UHGV virus genome: UHGV-0175496
Length of the DNA stretch: 39,037 nucleotides
Strand: one strand, 5' to 3'
DNA from: a virus
Under the pieces are notes generated by a model. The model searched no databases, had not been told where the DNA came from, and saw only the letters and a list, made by a program, of their open reading frames with translations. Of the stretch, positions 2,816 to 35,087 are shown piece after piece. The stretch's first letter is position 1, and every line of letters begins with the position of its first letter. The translations under genes and the position numbers were made by a program.

Positions 2816-3571
2816 TTAAACTGCTAGTTGCAATTGCATTTCAAAGCGGTCGCGTTGTTCACAATACGCAAGAGAACCAGGGCTATTGTGTGCCTCAATC
2901 CGTTCTACCATTAATGCTGCGCGTGTCTCTTTACTTGCAGGTGCATAAGCCCCAGACCAGGCTTTATCAATACCGATGTTTCGAGCGACGTTCGTACTAT
3001 CTGCGCTGGCTAAGGGTAATTTTGTGAATATCAGCGGATTTAACATGCGCAATCCATGTAGTTTCGTAACCGGCTGACCATGCCCATCAACAATGTGACG
3101 AATCAGGTCTTTCATTCTGGCTACCGCAAGAGTTGGGCGCTTTACGTCATAGTCGCCACAACTACCGATAGCCACTCGCGGAAACTCATTGCACAAATGA
3201 ATAAATCGCGCGTCACTTTCATTCATGTGCCACACTGGAACGCCAGCTAGTTTTCCGTGAGGCCACTCATTCAGAAGCGCATCATTTTCCTCCTCTCCGC
3301 CATCAATAATATCCGGGATAATGGCAAAATCGAATCCTGGGTGATTCTTCCAGCGAGCAACAAACTCGTAGTAATCGCTCCAGTCGATTTTGTTTTTGCC
3401 AGCTGCTTTCCAGGCGGTGAATGCACCGTTGTCCAGCGCGAACGACTGACAGTATTCAGCCGCGAGATTGATCTGGCCTGAATGCGCAAAACTGATAAAC
3501 GCATGTCGCCCTTTCCATGCTCTCATTGCGCACGTATCAGGAGTAATAGGCCCACCGTGGTAGTGAATCAT
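2816..3571 (-). CDS. TIM-barrel tRNA-guanine-transglycosylase-superfamily protein (DpdA-like candidate); function unproven
   Basis: 251 aa from the ATG at 3569-3571, preceded by AAGGAG. Motifs FALDNGAF (cf. Tgt DSGGFQ), DFAIIPDIIDGG and RVAIGSCG are spaced like TGT barrel strands. No CxCxxC zinc site seen. Confidence 0.4.
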   Translation of the reverse strand: MIHYHGGPITPDTCAMRAWKGRHAFISFAHSGQINLAAEYCQSFALDNGAFTAWKAAGKNKIDWSDYYEFVARWKNHPGFDFAIIPDIIDGGEEENDALLNEWPHGKLAGVPVWHMNESDARFIHLCNEFPRVAIGSCGDYDVKRPTLAVARMKDLIRHIVDGHGQPVTKLHGLRMLNPLIFTKLPLASADSTNVARNIGIDKAWSGAYAPASKETRAALMVERIEAHNSPGSLAYCEQRDRFEMQLQLAV

Positions 3572-3572
3572 C

Positions 3573-3980
3573 TCACTCTCCTTTGATGCGAATGCCAGTA
3601 GCGCGGATTGCATCGATGACTTCAGAAACTTTGTATGCCATTACCGTTTGGTAATCATCGTGAAAATCTGTTCGATGAAGCATGCTGCTACGTTCCGGGA
3701 GCAGTATTTCCCGCGCTTCCAGTTCTGCAATGCGCTTTTTTGCTGCTTCCAATTCATCCAGTAATTCCAGCACGGTAGCCGGATTAGCCTTGGCAACAAA
3801 ATCCCGGACTGGCTTACAATCAATCTCCGCAATGGGTTGATACGATGTGTAGCCATGCTGTCTTGTATAACTACCGTGACGAATAACGAAAAAATCACCA
3901 TTTATTTTTTTAGCCTGCCACTTATCTTCACCGGCTTTCTCTGCCGCTTCACGCAGTGCCTGAGAGTTAATTTCGCTCAC
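3573..3980 (-). CDS. Ea22-like (Ead/Ea22 family) protein
   Basis: 135 aa; N-terminus MSEINSQALREAAEKA and C-terminus GIRIKGE match lambda Ea22 ends, with a different middle. Start codon is GTG in sequence, overlapping the upstream stop. Confidence 0.7.
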   Translation of the reverse strand: MSEINSQALREAAEKAGEDKWQAKKINGDFFVIRHGSYTRQHGYTSYQPIAEIDCKPVRDFVAKANPATVLELLDELEAAKKRIAELEAREILLPERSSMLHRTDFHDDYQTVMAYKVSEVIDAIRATGIRIKGE

Positions 3981-4198
3981 TTCGAACCTCTCTGTTTACT
4001 GATAAGCTCCAGATCCTCCTGGCAACTTGCACAAGTCCGACAACCCTGAACGACCAGGCGTCTTCGTTCATCTATCGGATCGCCACACTCACAACAATGA
4101 GTGGCAGATACAGTCTGGTAGTTCAGACGACGCATTTTTATTGCTGTGTTGCGCTGTAATTCTTCAATTTCTGATGCTGAATCAATGATGTCTGCCAT
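3977..4198 (-). CDS. TraR/DksA-family C4 zinc-finger protein
   Basis: 73 aa with CCECGDPIDERRRLVVQGCRTCASCQ (CxxC-N17-CxxC); ATG verified; coupled to the downstream gene by overlap. Confidence 0.75.
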   Translation of the reverse strand: MADIIDSASEIEELQRNTAIKMRRLNYQTVSATHCCECGDPIDERRRLVVQGCRTCASCQEDLELISKQRGSK

Positions 4199-6816: not shown

Positions 6817-6914
6817 TTTTTATAAGCGTCGACGGCTTCACGAAACATCTTTTCATCGCCAATAAAAGTGGCGATAGTGAATTTAGTCTGGATAGCCATA
6901 AGTGTTTGATCCAT
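6771..6914 (-). CDS. kil: Kil, host cell-division inhibitor
   Basis: Internal start [47 protein letters not shown], 47 aa; overlaps gam and cIII as in lambda. Confidence 0.8.
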
Positions 6915-7047
6915 TCTTTGGGACTCCTGGCTGATTAAGTATGTCGATAAGGCGTTTCCATCCGTCACGTAATTTACGGGTGATTCGTTCAAGTAAAGAT
7001 TCGGAAGGGCAGCCAGCAACAGGCCACCCTGCAATGGCATATTGCAT
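6883..7047 (-). CDS. cIII: CIII, FtsH inhibitor stabilising CII
   Basis: Internal start [54 protein letters not shown], 54 aa, matches lambda CIII. Confidence 0.9.
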   Translation of the reverse strand: MQYAIAGWPVAGCPSESLLERITRKLRDGWKRLIDILNQPGVPKNGSNTYGYPD

Positions 7048-7119
7048 GGTGTGCTCCTTATTTATACATAACGAAAAACGCCTCGAGTGAAGCGTTATTG
7101 GTATGCGGTAAAACCGCAC

Positions 7120-7488
7120 TCAGACGGCCTTGATAGTCATATCATCTGAATCAAATATTCCTGATGTATCGATATCGGTAATTCTTATTCCTTCACCTCC
7201 ATCCATTGGAGGCCATCCTTCCTGACCATTTCCATCATCCCAGTCGAACTCACAAACAACACCATATGCATTTAAGTCTTTCGAAATTGCTATAAGCAGA
7301 GCATGTTGCGCCAGCATGATTAATACAGCATTTAATAAAGAGCCGTGTTTATTGAGTCGGTATTCAGAGTCTGACCAGAAATTATTAATCTGGTGAAGTT
7401 TTTCCTCTGTCATTACGTCATGGTCGATTTCAATTTCTATTGATGCTTTCCAGTCGTAATCAATGATGTATTTTTTGATGTTTGACAT
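7120..7488 (-). CDS. ea10: Ea10-like protein
   Basis: 122 aa MSNIKKYIIDYDWKASIEIEIDHDVMTEEKLHQINNFWSDSEYRLNKHGS... matches lambda Ea10; ATG verified. Confidence 0.85.
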   Translation of the reverse strand: MSNIKKYIIDYDWKASIEIEIDHDVMTEEKLHQINNFWSDSEYRLNKHGSLLNAVLIMLAQHALLIAISKDLNAYGVVCEFDWDDGNGQEGWPPMDGGEGIRITDIDTSGIFDSDDMTIKAV

Positions 7489-7650
7489 CTGTTCATATCC
7501 TCACAGAAAAAAATCGCCCTCACATTAGAGGTCAAAGAAGATTTCCAATAATCAGAACAAGTCGGCTCCTGTTTAGTTACGAGCGACATTGCTCCGTGTA
7601 TTCACTCGTTGGAATGAATACACAGTGCAGTGTTTATTCTTTTGTTTGCG

Positions 7651-7676
7651 TGAAAATGAAACCCGCCTGAGCGGGT
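7651..7676 (-). terminator. Intrinsic terminator just after the orphan gene (stem ACCCGC/GCGGGT, loop CTGA, then U-rich UUCAUUUUCA on the minus-strand transcript)
   Basis: Hairpin overlaps the TAA stop of the 7676..8545 gene; T-rich run follows in the direction of transcription. Confidence 0.5.
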
Positions 7677-8545
7677 TATGACCACTTTTTGTTTGGATTT
7701 CGTTGGTGAGCGTGGTTTACAGGATTATTTGATATACCCCATAACTCTGACTCGCTTATCTCTACACGAGAGAAAGACCTGCTTTCTTTCAGTTCTTTTA
7801 TAAACCTAGAACCTACGATGACATCTATTGTCCCAGAAAGTTCTTGTAAAAGATCTTTGTTTTTTCTGAGGAAGAAAACATCTTCTTTATATTTAATTTT
7901 TACATAGAATTTATTCTGTGTTTTTAATATATCAAAGCATGGCAGATATCTATATCCCTCATGCTTTCGCCACTGCTTAACAATTATAACATCTCTTTCA
8001 TTTACTGCATTAATCAGCCCAAGACCAAGTATAGGTATGAATATTCTATTGTCTGCCGAAAGCGTACAATTATCACCACCAGGCAAATATGTATAAATCA
8101 TGTCGGAATTTTTATACGCATCAACGAATGCACGTAAGAATCGTACATATTTTTGCCATCCGTTTATACCAAATTTACCATATAAGTATTCTTTATTTGT
8201 TAGAAGAAAACTATTTGTATCAGGAGCCTTATCTACAGACCTGTCGATAAGATCTCCAACTACGTTTACAAAGTCAAAGACAGAGTTTAATAAGAACAAT
8301 TGTCTTTCAGTCGGGCGAATTTCAATTATGTAGCCTGGATGAAGACGATATTGCATCTGCTTACGAAGTATACTGAACGCTTGGGTCCGGGCATCTGAAA
8401 GCAACTTCCTGTCGCCATCGCCGTGAGCATTGTTTCTAATAAAACTGATATAATTTGCTAATTTTTCAGCCTCTTTTTTGTGTTTTTTTCGCTCTGATGC
8501 TGAGTCTATTGGTTTTGGTATGGACTTGTAATCAATTTTCTTCAT
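7676..8545 (-). CDS. Orphan AT-rich protein of unknown function in the ral/sieB slot between N and ea10 (candidate exclusion, defence or anti-defence moron)
   Basis: 289 aa from the ATG at 8543-8545 (GAGG 6 nt upstream); the track start at 8557 is 4 codons upstream and overlaps the N stop as ATGA. About 25-35% G+C on sampled lines against ~50% flanks. No transmembrane run or motif recognised. Confidence 0.7.
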   Translation of the reverse strand: MKKIDYKSIPKPIDSASERKKHKKEAEKLANYISFIRNNAHGDGDRKLLSDARTQAFSILRKQMQYRLHPGYIIEIRPTERQLFLLNSVFDFVNVVGDLIDRSVDKAPDTNSFLLTNKEYLYGKFGINGWQKYVRFLRAFVDAYKNSDMIYTYLPGGDNCTLSADNRIFIPILGLGLINAVNERDVIIVKQWRKHEGYRYLPCFDILKTQNKFYVKIKYKEDVFFLRKNKDLLQELSGTIDVIVGSRFIKELKESRSFSRVEISESELWGISNNPVNHAHQRNPNKKWS

Positions 8546-8553
8546 TACGTACC

Positions 8554-8877
8554 TCATGCCAATGGAATGGATTTCCCTTTAACCTTTTGTCTTCCTTGAC
8601 AAGTTATACCGAACTCACTTGGCTTGCTATACCAAACTCGATGATTCTTGCGCTCAATACGTTGCAGGTTGCTTTCAATCTGTTCGTGGTATTCAGCCAG
8701 CACCGTAAGGTCTATCGGATTCAGTGCGCTTTCTACTCGTGATTTCGGTTTGCGATTCAGCGAGAGAATAGGGCGGTTAACTGGTTTTGCGCTTACCCCA
8801 ACCAACAGGGGATTTGCTGCTTTCCATTGAGCCTGTTTCTCTGCGCGACGTTCGCGGCGGCGTGTTTGTGCATCCAT
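8554..8877 (-). CDS. N: Antiterminator N
   Basis: Internal start MDAQTRRRERRAEKQAQWKAANPLLVGVSAKPVNRPILSLNRKPKSRVESALNPIDLTVLAEY..., 107 aa with the arginine-rich boxB-binding motif; matches lambda N. Confidence 0.9.
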   Translation of the reverse strand: MDAQTRRRERRAEKQAQWKAANPLLVGVSAKPVNRPILSLNRKPKSRVESALNPIDLTVLAEYHEQIESNLQRIERKNHRVWYSKPSEFGITCQGRQKVKGKSIPLA

Positions 8878-9032: not shown

Positions 9033-9066
9033 GCTGCCCTTCTTCAGGGCTTAATTTTTAAGAGCA
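9033..9066 (-). promoter_or_regulatory. nutL (boxA-like TGCTCTTA, boxB GCCCTGAAGAAGGGCAGC) on the pL transcript
   Basis: Reverse complement reads GTGATGCTCTTAAAAATTAAGCCCTGAAGAAGGGCAGC, the lambda nutL arrangement with one boxA change (C to T). Confidence 0.8.
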
Positions 9067-9111
9067 TCACCTTCAATGGTGGTCAGTGCGTCCTGCTGAT
9101 GGCTTAAAATT

Positions 9112-9179
9112 ACAAGAAAGATTGTATGTTGTAAACAAGAAATATTGTAAAAAGGGGCATGAAAAACAAACTCCATTGT
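9112..9179. promoter_or_regulatory. OL operator cluster of 434-type sites (ACAAGAAAGATTGT, ACAAGAAATATTGT, ACAAACTCCATTGT) overlapping pL
   Basis: Three 14-bp ACAA-N6-TTGT sites at about 9112-9125, 9135-9148 and 9166-9179, between the cI-operon end and nutL. Confidence 0.75.
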
Positions 9180-9229
9180 TTTTAAACGGAAAATAGTTTG
9201 TTTTTTGGTTATCGAGATTGAGGTGGGGA

Positions 9230-10586
<1,357 letters not shown>

Positions 10587-32117: not shown

Positions 32118-34511
32118 ATGGCTAATTACCGTGATTTGTTAGAGCAGGCTGGCGCACGTTACGGTGTGCCAGAAGGGTTGATGACTGCACTGGGTGCCAA
32201 GGAGTCTTCTTACAACCCTGCCGCAGTAAGCTCCGCCGGGGCTGTAGGATTGACTCAGGTCATGCCTGGGACATGGCGTGATATGGGTTATACCGATGAG
32301 CAAATGCAAAACCCCGAATATCAGGCTGACGCTGGCGCGCGCTATCTGGCAAAGATGTACCAGCAGTTTGGTAACTGGCGTGACGCTCTTCAGGCTTATC
32401 ACGACGGTCCCGGCAACGTTATGAAGGCAAAGCGTGGTGAATATACGCCAGGACCTGAAGGCCGCGGTTACGTTGATGATCGCTTTGCTCAATGGGCGGG
32501 TGACCCGGTGACAGACTCAACAGTCGAACAGCGCGCCACCTCTGCAAAGGTACATCCTCAGCAAGACCCTAACAACCCGTTTGCACAACTGGAAGTACAG
32601 TCATCCGAACAAGTATCGGCATCAGGTGTGCAGTCAGACCCAAATAATCCATTTGCTCAGATTGAGCAGCAGGCAGCCAGTCAGCAGCCACCTCAACCCG
32701 TAAGTTCCGTCGCACCGAAACCTGTTCAGCAGCAAGGCGGAATAATGTCTGACCTTGGTAATGGACTTGCTGAAACCGGGCGCGGCTTACTACAGGCAGG
32801 AATCAACGTAGCGAACATACCTGCTGAACTCACTGATGCTGTAACAAGCGCGGCGGCTTGGGCTGGCGGTAAACTCGGCATTGGCGATGGTACATATCAA
32901 CCAGCGCCACGAGTAACAACGCAGGGATTAGAGCAGGACTTTGGCCTTCAGCAAGGCGCGCTGACTCCACAAACTACAGAGGGCAGGGTATTTGCTGAGG
33001 CATTGCCTTACCTCACTCCTGCTGGCATTGAGAGAGCGGCAACACAGGCACCAACACTTGCTGGTCGAATTGCTCAGGGGGCAACTCGCCTTCTAGCAGA
33101 AAACGCAGTCGGATCACTTGCTGCAAATAGTGCGAAAGATGATGCGGAAGCACTCGCCACCGATTTAGGCGTTGGTGTACTTGCTGGCGGTGCTATTAAC
33201 GCTGCCGGACGTGGATTAGGTGCTGCTTATCGTGGCGTTAGTGGTGCTATCGCGCCAGAAGCACAGCAGGCTATCAGATTTGCAGAGCGTGAAGGCGTTC
33301 CTCTGCACACCACAGACCTGTTACAACCCACTTCCCGCGTCGGAAAAATGGCGCAGACTACAGCAGAAAATATCCCTCTGGCTGGCACAAGCGGAATGAG
33401 AGCAACGCAACAGGAAGCGAGAAGCCAGTTGGTGCAGAGATTTGCTGATAAATTCGGTGAGTATGATCCAGCTGTTGTTATTGACAGCCTTAAAGCGAAA
33501 ACATCAGGAATTCGTCGTGCTGCAGGGAACCGTCTTGAGCAGGTTCAGAATGCTATGGCTGGAGTAAACATTCAGCCTGCGCGAGCAATTCAGCAGATTG
33601 ATACAGAAATATCTAACCTGCAGAAGCTTGGTAAGGTTGCTGATAACGAGACAATTTCAAAACTTCAGTCATATCGTGATGAGCTTGTTCGCAATGCTGG
33701 CCCTGATGGCCCGGTAAATCTGGATTTGAAGCAATTAAGCGACCTGCGCAGCCAGTTCAGAATGGACGTGAAGGGTGAGCGACCAGTGTTACCAAACCGT
33801 TCCGATGCTGCCATTCAGCGCGTTTACAAGGCAATGACTGACGATATCAATGGTGCCATTGGTCAGAATCTTGGCAACGATACTCTCCGTAAATATCAGC
33901 AGGCCAATGCCGTCTACGCTGACGAAGCGGCGAAACTAAAGAATACCAGGCTGAAGAATGTTCTCATGAAAGGCGACCTGACGCCGGAAGTTGTCAACAA
34001 CATGCTATTCAGCAAGAACAAATCGGAAATTAAGACGCTGTATAACTCAGTTGGTCGTGTTGGCAGGGCGCAAATGCGCAATGGCATCATTGGAAAGGCG
34101 ATGGAGAAATCTGGCGGATCCCCTGACCAGTTCCTTCGGCAGCTTAACATCCTGCAAAACCAGACTGGCATCACATTTAAGGGGCAGGACGCTGCTTATC
34201 TGAAAGGATTAAAAAACTATCTGCAATCCACGCAGCAGGCTGCAAAAGCGGCAGTAACAACACCCACAGGGCAGCAAACCATCCCGTTCATTATCGGATA
34301 TGGGACGGCAATGAACCCGGCGACAACTGGCGCAGCAGTAAGCTACGGCCTTCTTGCTCGCGCCTATGAGAGTAAGCCATTCAGAGATGCAATGCTACGA
34401 ATGGCAAACACACCACGCGGATCAACAGCGTTTGAGAAAGCCATGCAGCAGGCACAAAAGGCAATTAACGCTATGACGCAGGGGGCTAAGTCTGATGCAT
34501 TGTCAGAATAG
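32118..34511 (+). CDS. Ejection protein (gp16 position) with an N-terminal soluble lytic transglycosylase domain
   Basis: 797 aa; N-terminus carries the SLT family signature GAKESSYNPAAVSSAGAVGLTQVMPGTWRDMGY...QAYHDGPGNV. Confidence 0.7.
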   Translation: MANYRDLLEQAGARYGVPEGLMTALGAKESSYNPAAVSSAGAVGLTQVMPGTWRDMGYTDEQMQNPEYQADAGARYLAKMYQQFGNWRDALQAYHDGPGNVMKAKRGEYTPGPEGRGYVDDRFAQWAGDPVTDSTVEQRATSAKVHPQQDPNNPFAQLEVQSSEQVSASGVQSDPNNPFAQIEQQAASQQPPQPVSSVAPKPVQQQGGIMSDLGNGLAETGRGLLQAGINVANIPAELTDAVTSAAAWAGGKLGIGDGTYQPAPRVTTQGLEQDFGLQQGALTPQTTEGRVFAEALPYLTPAGIERAATQAPTLAGRIAQGATRLLAENAVGSLAANSAKDDAEALATDLGVGVLAGGAINAAGRGLGAAYRGVSGAIAPEAQQAIRFAEREGVPLHTTDLLQPTSRVGKMAQTTAENIPLAGTSGMRATQQEARSQLVQRFADKFGEYDPAVVIDSLKAKTSGIRRAAGNRLEQVQNAMAGVNIQPARAIQQIDTEISNLQKLGKVADNETISKLQSYRDELVRNAGPDGPVNLDLKQLSDLRSQFRMDVKGERPVLPNRSDAAIQRVYKAMTDDINGAIGQNLGNDTLRKYQQANAVYADEAAKLKNTRLKNVLMKGDLTPEVVNNMLFSKNKSEIKTLYNSVGRVGRAQMRNGIIGKAMEKSGGSPDQFLRQLNILQNQTGITFKGQDAAYLKGLKNYLQSTQQAAKAAVTTPTGQQTIPFIIGYGTAMNPATTGAAVSYGLLARAYESKPFRDAMLRMANTPRGSTAFEKAMQQAQKAINAMTQGAKSDALSE

Positions 34512-34601
34512 CTTTTCAAACACCAGGAACGTGCAAAAACCAAATATGTAGAACGCGAGGTTTATCGTATCCCTCTGCATAGGCGATACCTTTGCTGATT
34601 G

Positions 34602-35087
34602 TTATCTGATGTTACTGCTACTGTTGCATGTGACTGTATTTCCAAACCCTGAATTGCAGTTTGTGTAAGTGTCAACTCGTGTTGGATAGGGTTGAGTTAT
34701 AACAGGCTGTCTCGCTTTTTGCTCGATCGCTTGCATTGTGTTTACAGCCTGATAATTCAATAAAGCCTGCTGGAATGCTTGGCTTTGTGCTATTTGTTGG
34801 GTTTGTTCTTGGCTTTGTAATTGAACATAAAGATTCTGAAGCTCAAGTCTTGCCTGTGCGTCACTTATTTTACCTTCATCAACACCTTGCCCGAGCATCT
34901 TTGCAGCAAGGACATACAGCTTAGGTGTTGGTGCAGACGCCATGCGTGAGTCGTTCTTTACACTGGCATCAAGGCAATTAGCCATATCGCTAAGCTTTTG
35001 ATAGCGTTGTTCGCAACTTGCTTGATAGTCACTTACTTTTGCGCATCCAACCAGCAGAAGAGGGATAATTAACAGTGATTTTTTCAT
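34602..35087 (-). CDS. Lipoprotein of unknown function in the immI-equivalent region (candidate exclusion or conversion factor)
   Basis: 161 aa from ATG 35085-35087 (AGGAG upstream); MKKSLLIIPLLLVGC lipobox signal peptide; Q-rich helical middle; Cys-rich C-terminus. Opposite strand to the structural genes. Confidence 0.65.
   Translation of the reverse strand: MKKSLLIIPLLLVGCAKVSDYQASCEQRYQKLSDMANCLDASVKNDSRMASAPTPKLYVLAAKMLGQGVDEGKISDAQARLELQNLYVQLQSQEQTQQIAQSQAFQQALLNYQAVNTMQAIEQKARQPVITQPYPTRVDTYTNCNSGFGNTVTCNSSSNIR

Follow-up and report, generated by a model that had tools for sequence, protein, structure and literature searches.

A phage 434-type early gene joining a TnpB/Cas12-like core to the Nun arrest peptide: a candidate transcription-arrest factor

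Nun, a phage protein that shuts out a rival by freezing RNA polymerase, is a textbook example and has been regarded as peculiar to phage HK022. The gene considered here lies in the 39,037-nucleotide virus genome UHGV-0175496 (hereafter the window, meaning that whole stretch), on the minus strand immediately downstream of the antiterminator gene N, and it encodes a 289-residue protein that ends in the Nun arrest peptide. The presence of this peptide is already known, having been flagged in GenBank for the counterpart gene of phage 434 (CPT_434_48, 97% identical), which is recorded there as a 'Nun C-terminal peptide-containing protein'. Taken together, the sequence comparisons, a structural model and the analogy with Nun suggest that the protein is, on balance, probably a Nun-type transcription-arrest factor with a targeting module derived from TnpB.

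The molecular basis of arrest by Nun is well described. In the elongation complex only Nun residues 87-109 are ordered, and all known arrest determinants lie there: N97, H98 and H100 touch RNA, template DNA and the beta' rudder; a pair is formed between R102 and the C-terminal carboxylate; and K106, K107 and W108 occupy a pocket that has the hybrid on one side and the downstream DNA on the other (PMC5386594). [quoted passage not shown] Lastly, phage-encoded derivatives of TnpB that regulate transcription are known (TldR), in a study that does not cover the 289-residue family (PMC10705468).

The final 14 residues of the window protein, VNHAHQRNPNKKWS, are identical at 14 of 14 positions to residues 96-109 of HK022 Nun (6ALG chain N), which was the one meaningful match of a phmmer search against all PDB chains (6alg_N, E 0.0011); the Nun profile phrog_5632 also matches the tail (E 4.5e-5). 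N97, H98, H100, R102, K106, K107 and W108 (Nun numbering) are all present at the extreme C-terminus, which is free as in Nun, and the AlphaFold2 (AF2) model leaves the last ~30 residues, tail included, disordered. At the DNA level, homology to the nun phages starts exactly at codon V276; from there it extends, at 94-96%, past both stop codon and terminator and on into the flank. Such a junction, considered alone, is compatible with an accidental mosaic joint; the persistence of the tail in diverged homologues argues against an accident. In locus L004, where the interval between nutL and the terminator is collinear with the window (71% DNA and 68% protein identity), PVNHAHQR..KKW is retained despite seven synonymous changes in 15 codons relative to the window, and the pattern V-N-H-A-H-x-R-[ND]-[PH]-x-K-K-W is kept in all five of the five homologues of 42-68% identity, the only variable tail positions being Q101, N103, P104, N105 and the terminal S. 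With relatives as distant as 42% identity included, the tail is more constrained than any other part of the protein: its proportion of nonsynonymous differences (pN) is 0.10 and that of synonymous differences (pS) 0.80, set against a pN for the whole gene of 0.38-0.41, or over a wider span 0.19-0.41, with saturated pS. A functional tail is favored by the fact that the conserved residues match the functional map of Nun, with N103 among the variable ones.

One feature of the Nun peptide is altered throughout the family. The positions of H93 and R94 are occupied by N and N, and no basic residue is found there in any member; the small Nuns have a conserved pair at 93-94, an aromatic or His residue plus a basic one, which contacts the upstream duplex. 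Given that H93/R94 are absent and that R94A affects binding rather than arrest, the tail of the 289-residue protein should rely more heavily on a delivery module.

A candidate for that module was recognized from an AF2 model built on a 16-sequence alignment, in which the predicted local distance difference test (pLDDT) is 80-94 over residues 10-220 and the core comprises a beta-strand (72-77), three helices (80-102, 110-116 and 118-145) and a beta-barrel (152-218). Structure prediction combined with Foldseek had been proposed in the initial annotation of this locus and, when run, matched the core to the WED-REC region of TnpB/Cas12. Against PDB, ISDra2 TnpB ranked top (prob 0.98) and TnpB/Cas12 proteins accounted for eight of the nine best matches, none of them at E < 0.001; against BFVD, viral TnpB/Fanzor-type 'transposases' were recovered, with one match only below E 0.001 (9.4e-4). 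The structural comparisons were concordant across three libraries, PDB and BFVD among them. In an hhalign comparison of the family with a 93-sequence TnpB WED-REC alignment, residues 71-96 aligned with TnpB 6-31 at a score of 25.1 (P = 0.003), the column-shuffled controls giving 12.9 +/- 2.5 with a maximum of 23.5 (0/100 reaching 25.1). The ISDra2 TnpB sequence was checked as identical to 8BF8 before comparison, and a greedy alignment yielded four TnpB hallmark motifs in the same order (beta1 'xIxLxPxxxQxxxL', AYKN, 'IxxPxLGxx' and 'GK(F/Y)Y'). Profile-based HMMER searches of PDB gave nothing relevant for the core, and similarity to PF12323 or PF01385 was not found in Pfam up to E = 10.

The modeled core has a WED-REC-like fold of the TnpB/Cas12 kind and is without the nuclease domains. 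No RuvC domain, D-E-D triad or zinc-finger/TNB domain was found, PF01385 and PF07282, both found in genuine TnpBs, are absent, and only ~70 residues remain after the WED domain. The stretch GTIDVIVG (238-245), located where TnpB has GVDVGI, is possibly a vestigial RuvC-I strand; its Asp is not conserved in the family. Regarding a guide or omega-RNA, there was no Rfam match around the gene or its remote relatives at a permissive threshold, nor any dip in synonymous divergence within the open reading frame (ORF) in a sliding-window analysis, and the downstream DNA is common to ordinary nun phages. Residues 1-70, which precede the core, are particular to the subgroup with the Nun tail, being absent from a remote group of relatives, and are the most variable part of the protein (pN 0.43-0.52 vs 0.36-0.41 for the core). 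Two other candidate assignments were discarded: D-Ala-D-Ala ligase matches in a single-sequence PDB search (E 0.02) were dismissed as chance, and a role of the N-terminal helix as an ARM for the phage's own boxB (AEKLANY vs AEKQAQW in lambda N) was rejected as unsupported, the L004 helix being weakly basic and without the aromatic residue alongside the same N ARM and boxB.

The resulting architecture overlaps with several described systems and coincides with none. Like HK022 Nun, the protein carries the identical C-terminal 14 residues, its gene is followed by the same terminator and downstream DNA and sits in the pL operon beside the immunity region with an intrinsic terminator after it (the homologue in locus L006 occupies the same slot past putL), and its predicted action is on RNA polymerase translocation. 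Unlike Nun, which has 109-112 residues, it has 289, shows no alignment to Nun 1-95 and no conserved boxB-binding ARM, lacks H93/R94, is encoded alongside N rather than in place of it, and has no detected promoter resembling PNun, reportedly the promoter of nun. With the TnpB/Cas12 RNA-guided nucleases (IS200/IS605 OrfB; for example, ISDra2 TnpB 8BF8/8H1J, Cas12n 9UDI, Cas12f and Fanzor) it shares the WED-REC-WED fold and topology over ~150 residues as well as the ordered motifs given above; however, it is devoid of RuvC, the D-E-D triad, zinc-finger/TNB, transposon context and detectable omega-RNA, and at a sequence identity of ~10% the similarity is structural or marginal at the profile level. 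TldR and dCas12f-sigmaE are likewise derived from TnpB/Cas12, exapted for transcription control and in some cases prophage-encoded, but they keep the entire TnpB fold with a decayed RuvC, use guide RNAs and serve as DNA-bound roadblocks or sigma-factor recruiters, and none has a polymerase-jamming peptide. The 289-residue protein therefore belongs neither to the Nun family, as judged by the ARM, residues 1-95 and H93/R94, nor to the TnpB/TldR group, as judged by RuvC and TNB, and no sign of a guide RNA was found.

The comparison with lambda is one of location. Ral, orf28 and SieB occupy the same slot between N and ea10 and are likewise accessory, non-essential cargo; the predicted mechanism differs, SieB is encoded on the opposite strand, and no Pfam, PHROG or PADLOC match of the 289-residue protein to the Ral or SieB families was found. 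The suggestion in the initial annotation that this slot holds exclusion or anti-restriction cargo is consequently retained in part, in that the gene is foreign, AT-rich accessory 'warfare' cargo, and amended in part, in that the evidence indicates Nun-like arrest rather than anti-restriction of the Ral type or exclusion of the SieB type. Its further suggestion of an undescribed system stands insofar as no experimentally described system covers the gene.

Under the preferred reading, that of a targeted arrest factor, the gene would be transcribed from pL together with N, ahead of the first terminator, as an immediate-early gene for which antitermination is not needed. In elongation complexes of E. 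coli RNA polymerase, the disordered tail would thread into the active-site cleft and cross-link the polymerase to the nucleic-acid scaffold, blocking translocation in the manner of HK022 Nun. The 270-residue basic body would recognize, in the target complex, some specific feature of DNA or of structured RNA and deliver the tail to it; the TnpB-derived body would thereby supply the localization that Nun obtains from the ARM-boxB interaction, its TnpB ancestors reading both transposon-associated motif (TAM) DNA and structured RNA. Because lambda N takes the same polymerase entry path and put-modified polymerase resists Nun, the phage's own complexes would probably be spared. A rival phage, some host locus or, more generally, any unmodified complexes are candidate targets, and the protein could serve in the exclusion of rival phages or in host shut-off.

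Several observations weigh against this reading. No promoter of the gene's own was detected, which leaves expression in the lysogen, needed for classical exclusion, unsupported, and for a lytic-phase product the benefit is less obvious. The phage itself has a lambda-type N and nut, so the target is not simply lambda boxB, and the basic helix at the N-terminus lacks conservation as an ARM. With N-N in place of H93/R94, the tail may have little intrinsic affinity. The connection with TnpB is a structural one, the Foldseek E values being weak and the profile-profile similarity local and modest (P = 0.003), and the AF2 model is based on just 16 sequences.

As one alternative, the protein could be an untargeted host take-over factor that jams any elongation complex unprotected by N or put and so silences host and rival transcription early in infection, with the TnpB-like body acting only as a scaffold or regulator. 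The non-specific binding of the Nun tail to elongation complexes (Kd ~300 nM), the immediate-early position of the gene and its coupling to N, the polymerase entry path that N shares, the resistance of put-modified polymerase to Nun, and the occurrence of the gene behind several N types and behind put all accord with this alternative. We nonetheless consider it improbable: a 150-residue nucleic-acid-recognition fold under purifying selection (core pN ~0.4, pS saturated) is hard to square with a mere scaffold, the loss of H93/R94 implies more rather than less dependence on targeting, and the joint presence of big and small forms suggests distinct specificities. Another possibility, in which the tail is a functionless relic of a mosaic junction and the protein is unrelated to RNA polymerase (for example, a DNA-binding regulator), appears quite unlikely, given that the tail is retained at ~71% DNA identity across the locus and at 42-48% protein identity, that synonymous sites are saturated with the tail pN the lowest in the gene, and that the conserved residues fit the Nun map; what speaks for it is the abrupt onset of nun-phage homology inside the gene and its extension at 94-96% into the flank, as is typical of lambdoid mosaic joints.

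Two further explanations were weighed. Co-transcription and translational coupling with N, together with the resemblance of the window helix AEKLANY to the lambda N ARM AEKQAQW, would suit an autoregulator that competes with N at nut-modified complexes, limits early transcription from pL and pR and biases the choice between lysis and lysogeny, yet this too merits little credence: the resemblance is lost in L004 despite the same N ARM and boxB, and homologues accompany N proteins with other ARMs and are found, too, in a put-type phage that has neither N nor nut. An RNA-guided regulator similar to TldR/dCas12, in which the TnpB-like body would bind a guide RNA and so bring the Nun tail to complementary DNA, draws on the TnpB/Cas12 fold of the core and on the precedent of phage-encoded TnpB derivatives that regulate transcription (PMC10705468). 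It must be judged highly improbable, as the whole RuvC/TNB half, by which TnpB grips much of its omega-RNA and heteroduplex, is lacking, the ORF has no region of suppressed synonymous change, no Rfam family was found nearby, ordinary nun phages have the same downstream DNA, and TldRs keep the full TnpB fold.

The distribution of the tail bears on the generality of this architecture. When viral contigs were scanned for NHAHxRxxxKKW, 112 intact viral ORFs were found to end in the Nun tail, on at least four unrelated bodies: canonical Nun (80 ORFs), the 290-residue type (25), and two more small types with other ARMs (4 and 3). Judged from these sequences, the Nun tail is a portable warhead. The small Nun-tail proteins of the latter two types (79-123 residues; L111, L123, L098 and L072 in cluster 3, and L044, L045 and L113 in cluster 4) have ARMs that differ from that of HK022 Nun, namely the P22-N-like GRRRLRR and MRKRDFARMARYNAEKQK, and presumably represent versions of Nun directed at different nut specificities; two such genes lie in tandem in L072. 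In the prophage L005, an uncalled 102-residue small Nun (9037-9345) with a P22-N-like ARM (MVDISYGRSSGQKTSKGRRRA...HKVVNHAHQRRPNKKWS) is located directly after the terminator of the big gene and has a plausible promoter of its own. This one prophage thus holds N, the big Nun-tail gene and a small Nun, a co-occurrence which suggests that the big and small carriers are not redundant and have distinct specificities. Likewise informative is the metagenomic lambdoid phage L006, which has no N and in which a 310-nucleotide leader contains a ~95%-identical copy of the HK022/HK75 putL (2935-3005), followed by a 290-residue homologue of 42% identity (3111-3983) with a terminator right after the stop codon. 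Rfam gave nothing on this leader, put being identified by direct alignment to the annotated HK75 putL; as read from the sequence, the arrangement is exactly that of nun in HK022, with the homologue in the nun slot.

A profile search of 1.84 billion representatives returned the full-length relatives P0004 and P0005 together with the remote group, which covers only residues ~72-228. Three of its members, L008 376-1368, L129 692-1672 and L130 1213-2205, have 326-330 residues at 21-27% identity, and their conserved tail is GGLPSLGK[R/H]R (...GGLPSLGKHR) rather than the Nun tail. In 3/3 contigs with context, all closely related, they lie between brxC and pglX of bacteriophage exclusion (BREX) operons; P0010, P0011 and P0016 are on contigs of 1-3 kb, whose context is uninformative. 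A bolder proposal, which we regard as rather doubtful, is that the WED-REC half of TnpB has been exapted as a stand-alone module for nucleic-acid targeting, specific for sequence or structure, that delivers short C-terminal 'warhead' peptides into host machines, these being the Nun peptide in lambdoid phages and GGLPSLGK[R/H]R in the BREX relatives. On that proposal the TnpB-like domain would set the specificity of a directed RNA polymerase jammer and might recognize a TAM-like DNA motif or a structured RNA (a rival's put or nut element, for example), or might even use a guide, and the GGLPSLGK[R/H]R tail would address a different target.

Closer relatives are widespread. The initial annotation had described the protein as an orphan that could be placed in no family, a view superseded by the phage 434 gene, the Nun tail, the TnpB/Cas12 WED-REC core and a full-length match to phrog_12139 (E 3.3e-203; residues 5-293 in 293-residue numbering against profile positions 1-289), a PHROG whose function is not annotated. 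Pfam (searched to E = 10 with all 16 family members) and PADLOC gave no family match. The window region is 97.6% identical to phage 434 (OL657226/7), the 90%-identity cluster of the protein has 1042 members, and the gene was found in 93 of 5426 complete E. coli genomes (~2%; 83 full-length and 10 partial copies), in every case on the chromosome and labeled 'hypothetical'. The family extends to ~40% identity in other lambdoid prophages. In every case the gene is part of the pL operon and has a terminator behind it; it comes directly after N, save in L006, which lacks N. The E. coli-type copies are always preceded by a lambda-type N and lambda nutL, with 434 immunity in most but not all cases, and diverged copies follow other N variants, with the boxB GCGCTGAAAAAGCGC in L005 and L096 and a different ARM in L029. 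The gene is absent from the lambda imm434 hybrid. Two disrupted E. coli copies were also noted: an IS1A interrupts the gene in NZ_CP062851.1 (3340552-3342045), and P0007 (BZL33_13755, 96 residues) has the N-terminal 23 residues of Bet fused in frame to the last 73 residues of the protein, Nun tail included, as if a prophage deletion had brought bet up against the 3' end of the gene.

No functional study was found in the literature on TnpB with Nun, on Nun with 434, or on the accessions, and the genome announcement of phage 434 does not discuss the gene. The searched literature likewise held no report of the TnpB-like body, an analysis of selection on the tail, the homologue in the put slot, the tail's modular distribution or the relatives embedded in BREX. 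The absence of the gene from lambda imm434, which was used in most '434' experiments, may explain the lack of an assigned phenotype. The arrest peptide is a portable module on at least four bodies; in one of its carriers, which occurs in the classical phage 434 as well as in ~2% of the complete E. coli genomes, a domain of TnpB/Cas12 descent would replace the RNA-binding ARM. Such an architecture, which would surprise specialists in both Nun and TnpB, links the control of transcription elongation with the domestication of transposon-encoded RNA-guided nucleases and suggests a natural way of aiming a polymerase roadblock at chosen transcription units. The BREX-embedded core relatives, with their other tail, point to a wider family in phage-host conflict, and the warhead-module proposal, if true, would represent a new design principle common to phage offense and bacterial defense.

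The coordinates of the gene, its parts and the neighboring elements are collected in Table 1. In the ORF listing of the window the gene spans 7676..8557 on the minus strand, corresponding to 293 residues counted from the first ATG (8557-8555), which overlaps the TGA stop codon of N (8556-8554). The second ATG (8545-8543), giving 289 residues, is the likely start, as it is preceded by a GAGG Shine-Dalgarno sequence at 8555-8552, 6 nucleotides upstream, and coincides with the starts of the PHROG profile, all homologues and the phage 434 GenBank coding sequence. The initial annotation had coupled the start to the N stop codon; the overlap holds for the first ATG, the probable start has been moved to the second, and coupling to N is tight under either. 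The close junction between N and the gene is retained in diverged relatives. Other features read at the outset were confirmed, including the ORF itself and its low G+C content (35.3%, with 30.4% at third codon positions, the lowest 867-nucleotide window in 39 kb, compared with a mean of 47.2 +/- 3.9% for such windows across the sequence), the Lys-rich N-terminus (nine Lys within residues 1-35; isoelectric point, pI, 9.6 for the whole protein) and the lack of any membrane-spanning run (maximum Kyte-Doolittle 1.38).

Table 1. Features of the 289-residue gene and its surroundings in the window.
Feature	Position	Strand	Details
Coding sequence of the 289-residue protein	7676..8545	minus	TAA stop 7676-7678; 97% identical to UMO75312.1 (phage 434)
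Residues 1-70, Lys-rich helical hairpin (H16-38, H43-65)	8336..8545	minus	pI 10.1; AF2 pLDDT ~90
Residues 71-220, modeled WED-REC-WED core (beta1, three REC helices, WED beta-barrel)	7886..8335	minus	
Residues 221-274, acidic helical linker	7724..7885	minus	AF2 pLDDT <50
Residues 275-289, PVNHAHQRNPNKKWS, Nun C-terminal RNA-polymerase arrest peptide	7679..7723	minus	phmmer, phrog_5632
DNA module common to nun phages HK022, HK75 and mEpX1	7648..7721	minus	Last 14 codons, stop and terminator; blastn 94-96%
N antiterminator gene, lambda-type, 107 residues	8554..8877	minus	PF11438 N36, E 2.9e-26; translationally coupled, immediately upstream
nutL boxB hairpin GCCCTGAAGAAGGGC	9036..9050	minus	Same as lambda nutL boxB; nutL annotated equivalently in phage 434
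Intrinsic terminator	7650..7677	minus	7-bp G+C-rich stem 7660-7677, then TCATTTTC
Long hairpin, no U-tract	7590..7629	minus	~14 pairs at 7594-7625; -21.9 kcal/mol, z = -6.9

The early left operon of the window is of the phage 434 type and runs leftward on the minus strand in the order cI434 (9631-10263), hex, oL/pL, nutL, N, the 289-residue gene, ea10 (DUF2528), and then cIII, kil, gam, bet and exo. A non-lambda insert at 7648-8563 takes the place of lambda 34065-35046 (ral, orf28 and sieB), so that, as first described, one gene replaces those of lambda; the adjoining DNA at 6900-7647 corresponds to lambda 33316-34064 at 98% identity. The terminator noted at the outset as a hairpin plus U-tract was corroborated by RNA folding (-15.4 kcal/mol, z = -4.2, with 0/200 shuffles folding equally well). 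Its hairpin directly abuts the stop codon of the gene, and it closes the immediate-early pL unit formed by N and the 289-residue gene. A hairpin-U terminator directly 3' of the stop codon is also present in L004, L005 and L006 with differing sequences, and in HK022 and HK75 nun is followed by the same element as in the window. A consensus scan within N for a promoter of the gene's own gave one 9/12 site, whose -10 element is downstream of the start codon, and such sites were no commoner than in shuffled sequence.

Finally, several minor elements of the flanks deserve mention. The second inverted repeat of the initial annotation, given there as 9 bp, is real, but it is longer (Table 1) and, being located in lambda-homologous DNA, is assigned to the flank and not to the insert; its role may be that of a processing site or of an element in the tL2 region. 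This hairpin is conserved in lambda, 434 and HK75, and in HK022 an IS903 sits in its loop (locus L002, around 1440-1500). Stem substitutions weaken the window copy (7507-7536, minus strand; -8.2 kcal/mol, z = -0.75) of the terminator that phage 434 has annotated upstream of ea10. A 158-residue ORF at 9230-9706 on the minus strand (phrog_2651), which overlaps the end of cI, corresponds to the 434 'repressor protection protein' Hex, whose start codon is flagged as disputed in the 434 record. The cIII thermoregulator RNA element of lambda (RF01804) is found at 7002-7060 on the minus strand (88.5 bits, E 1e-21).

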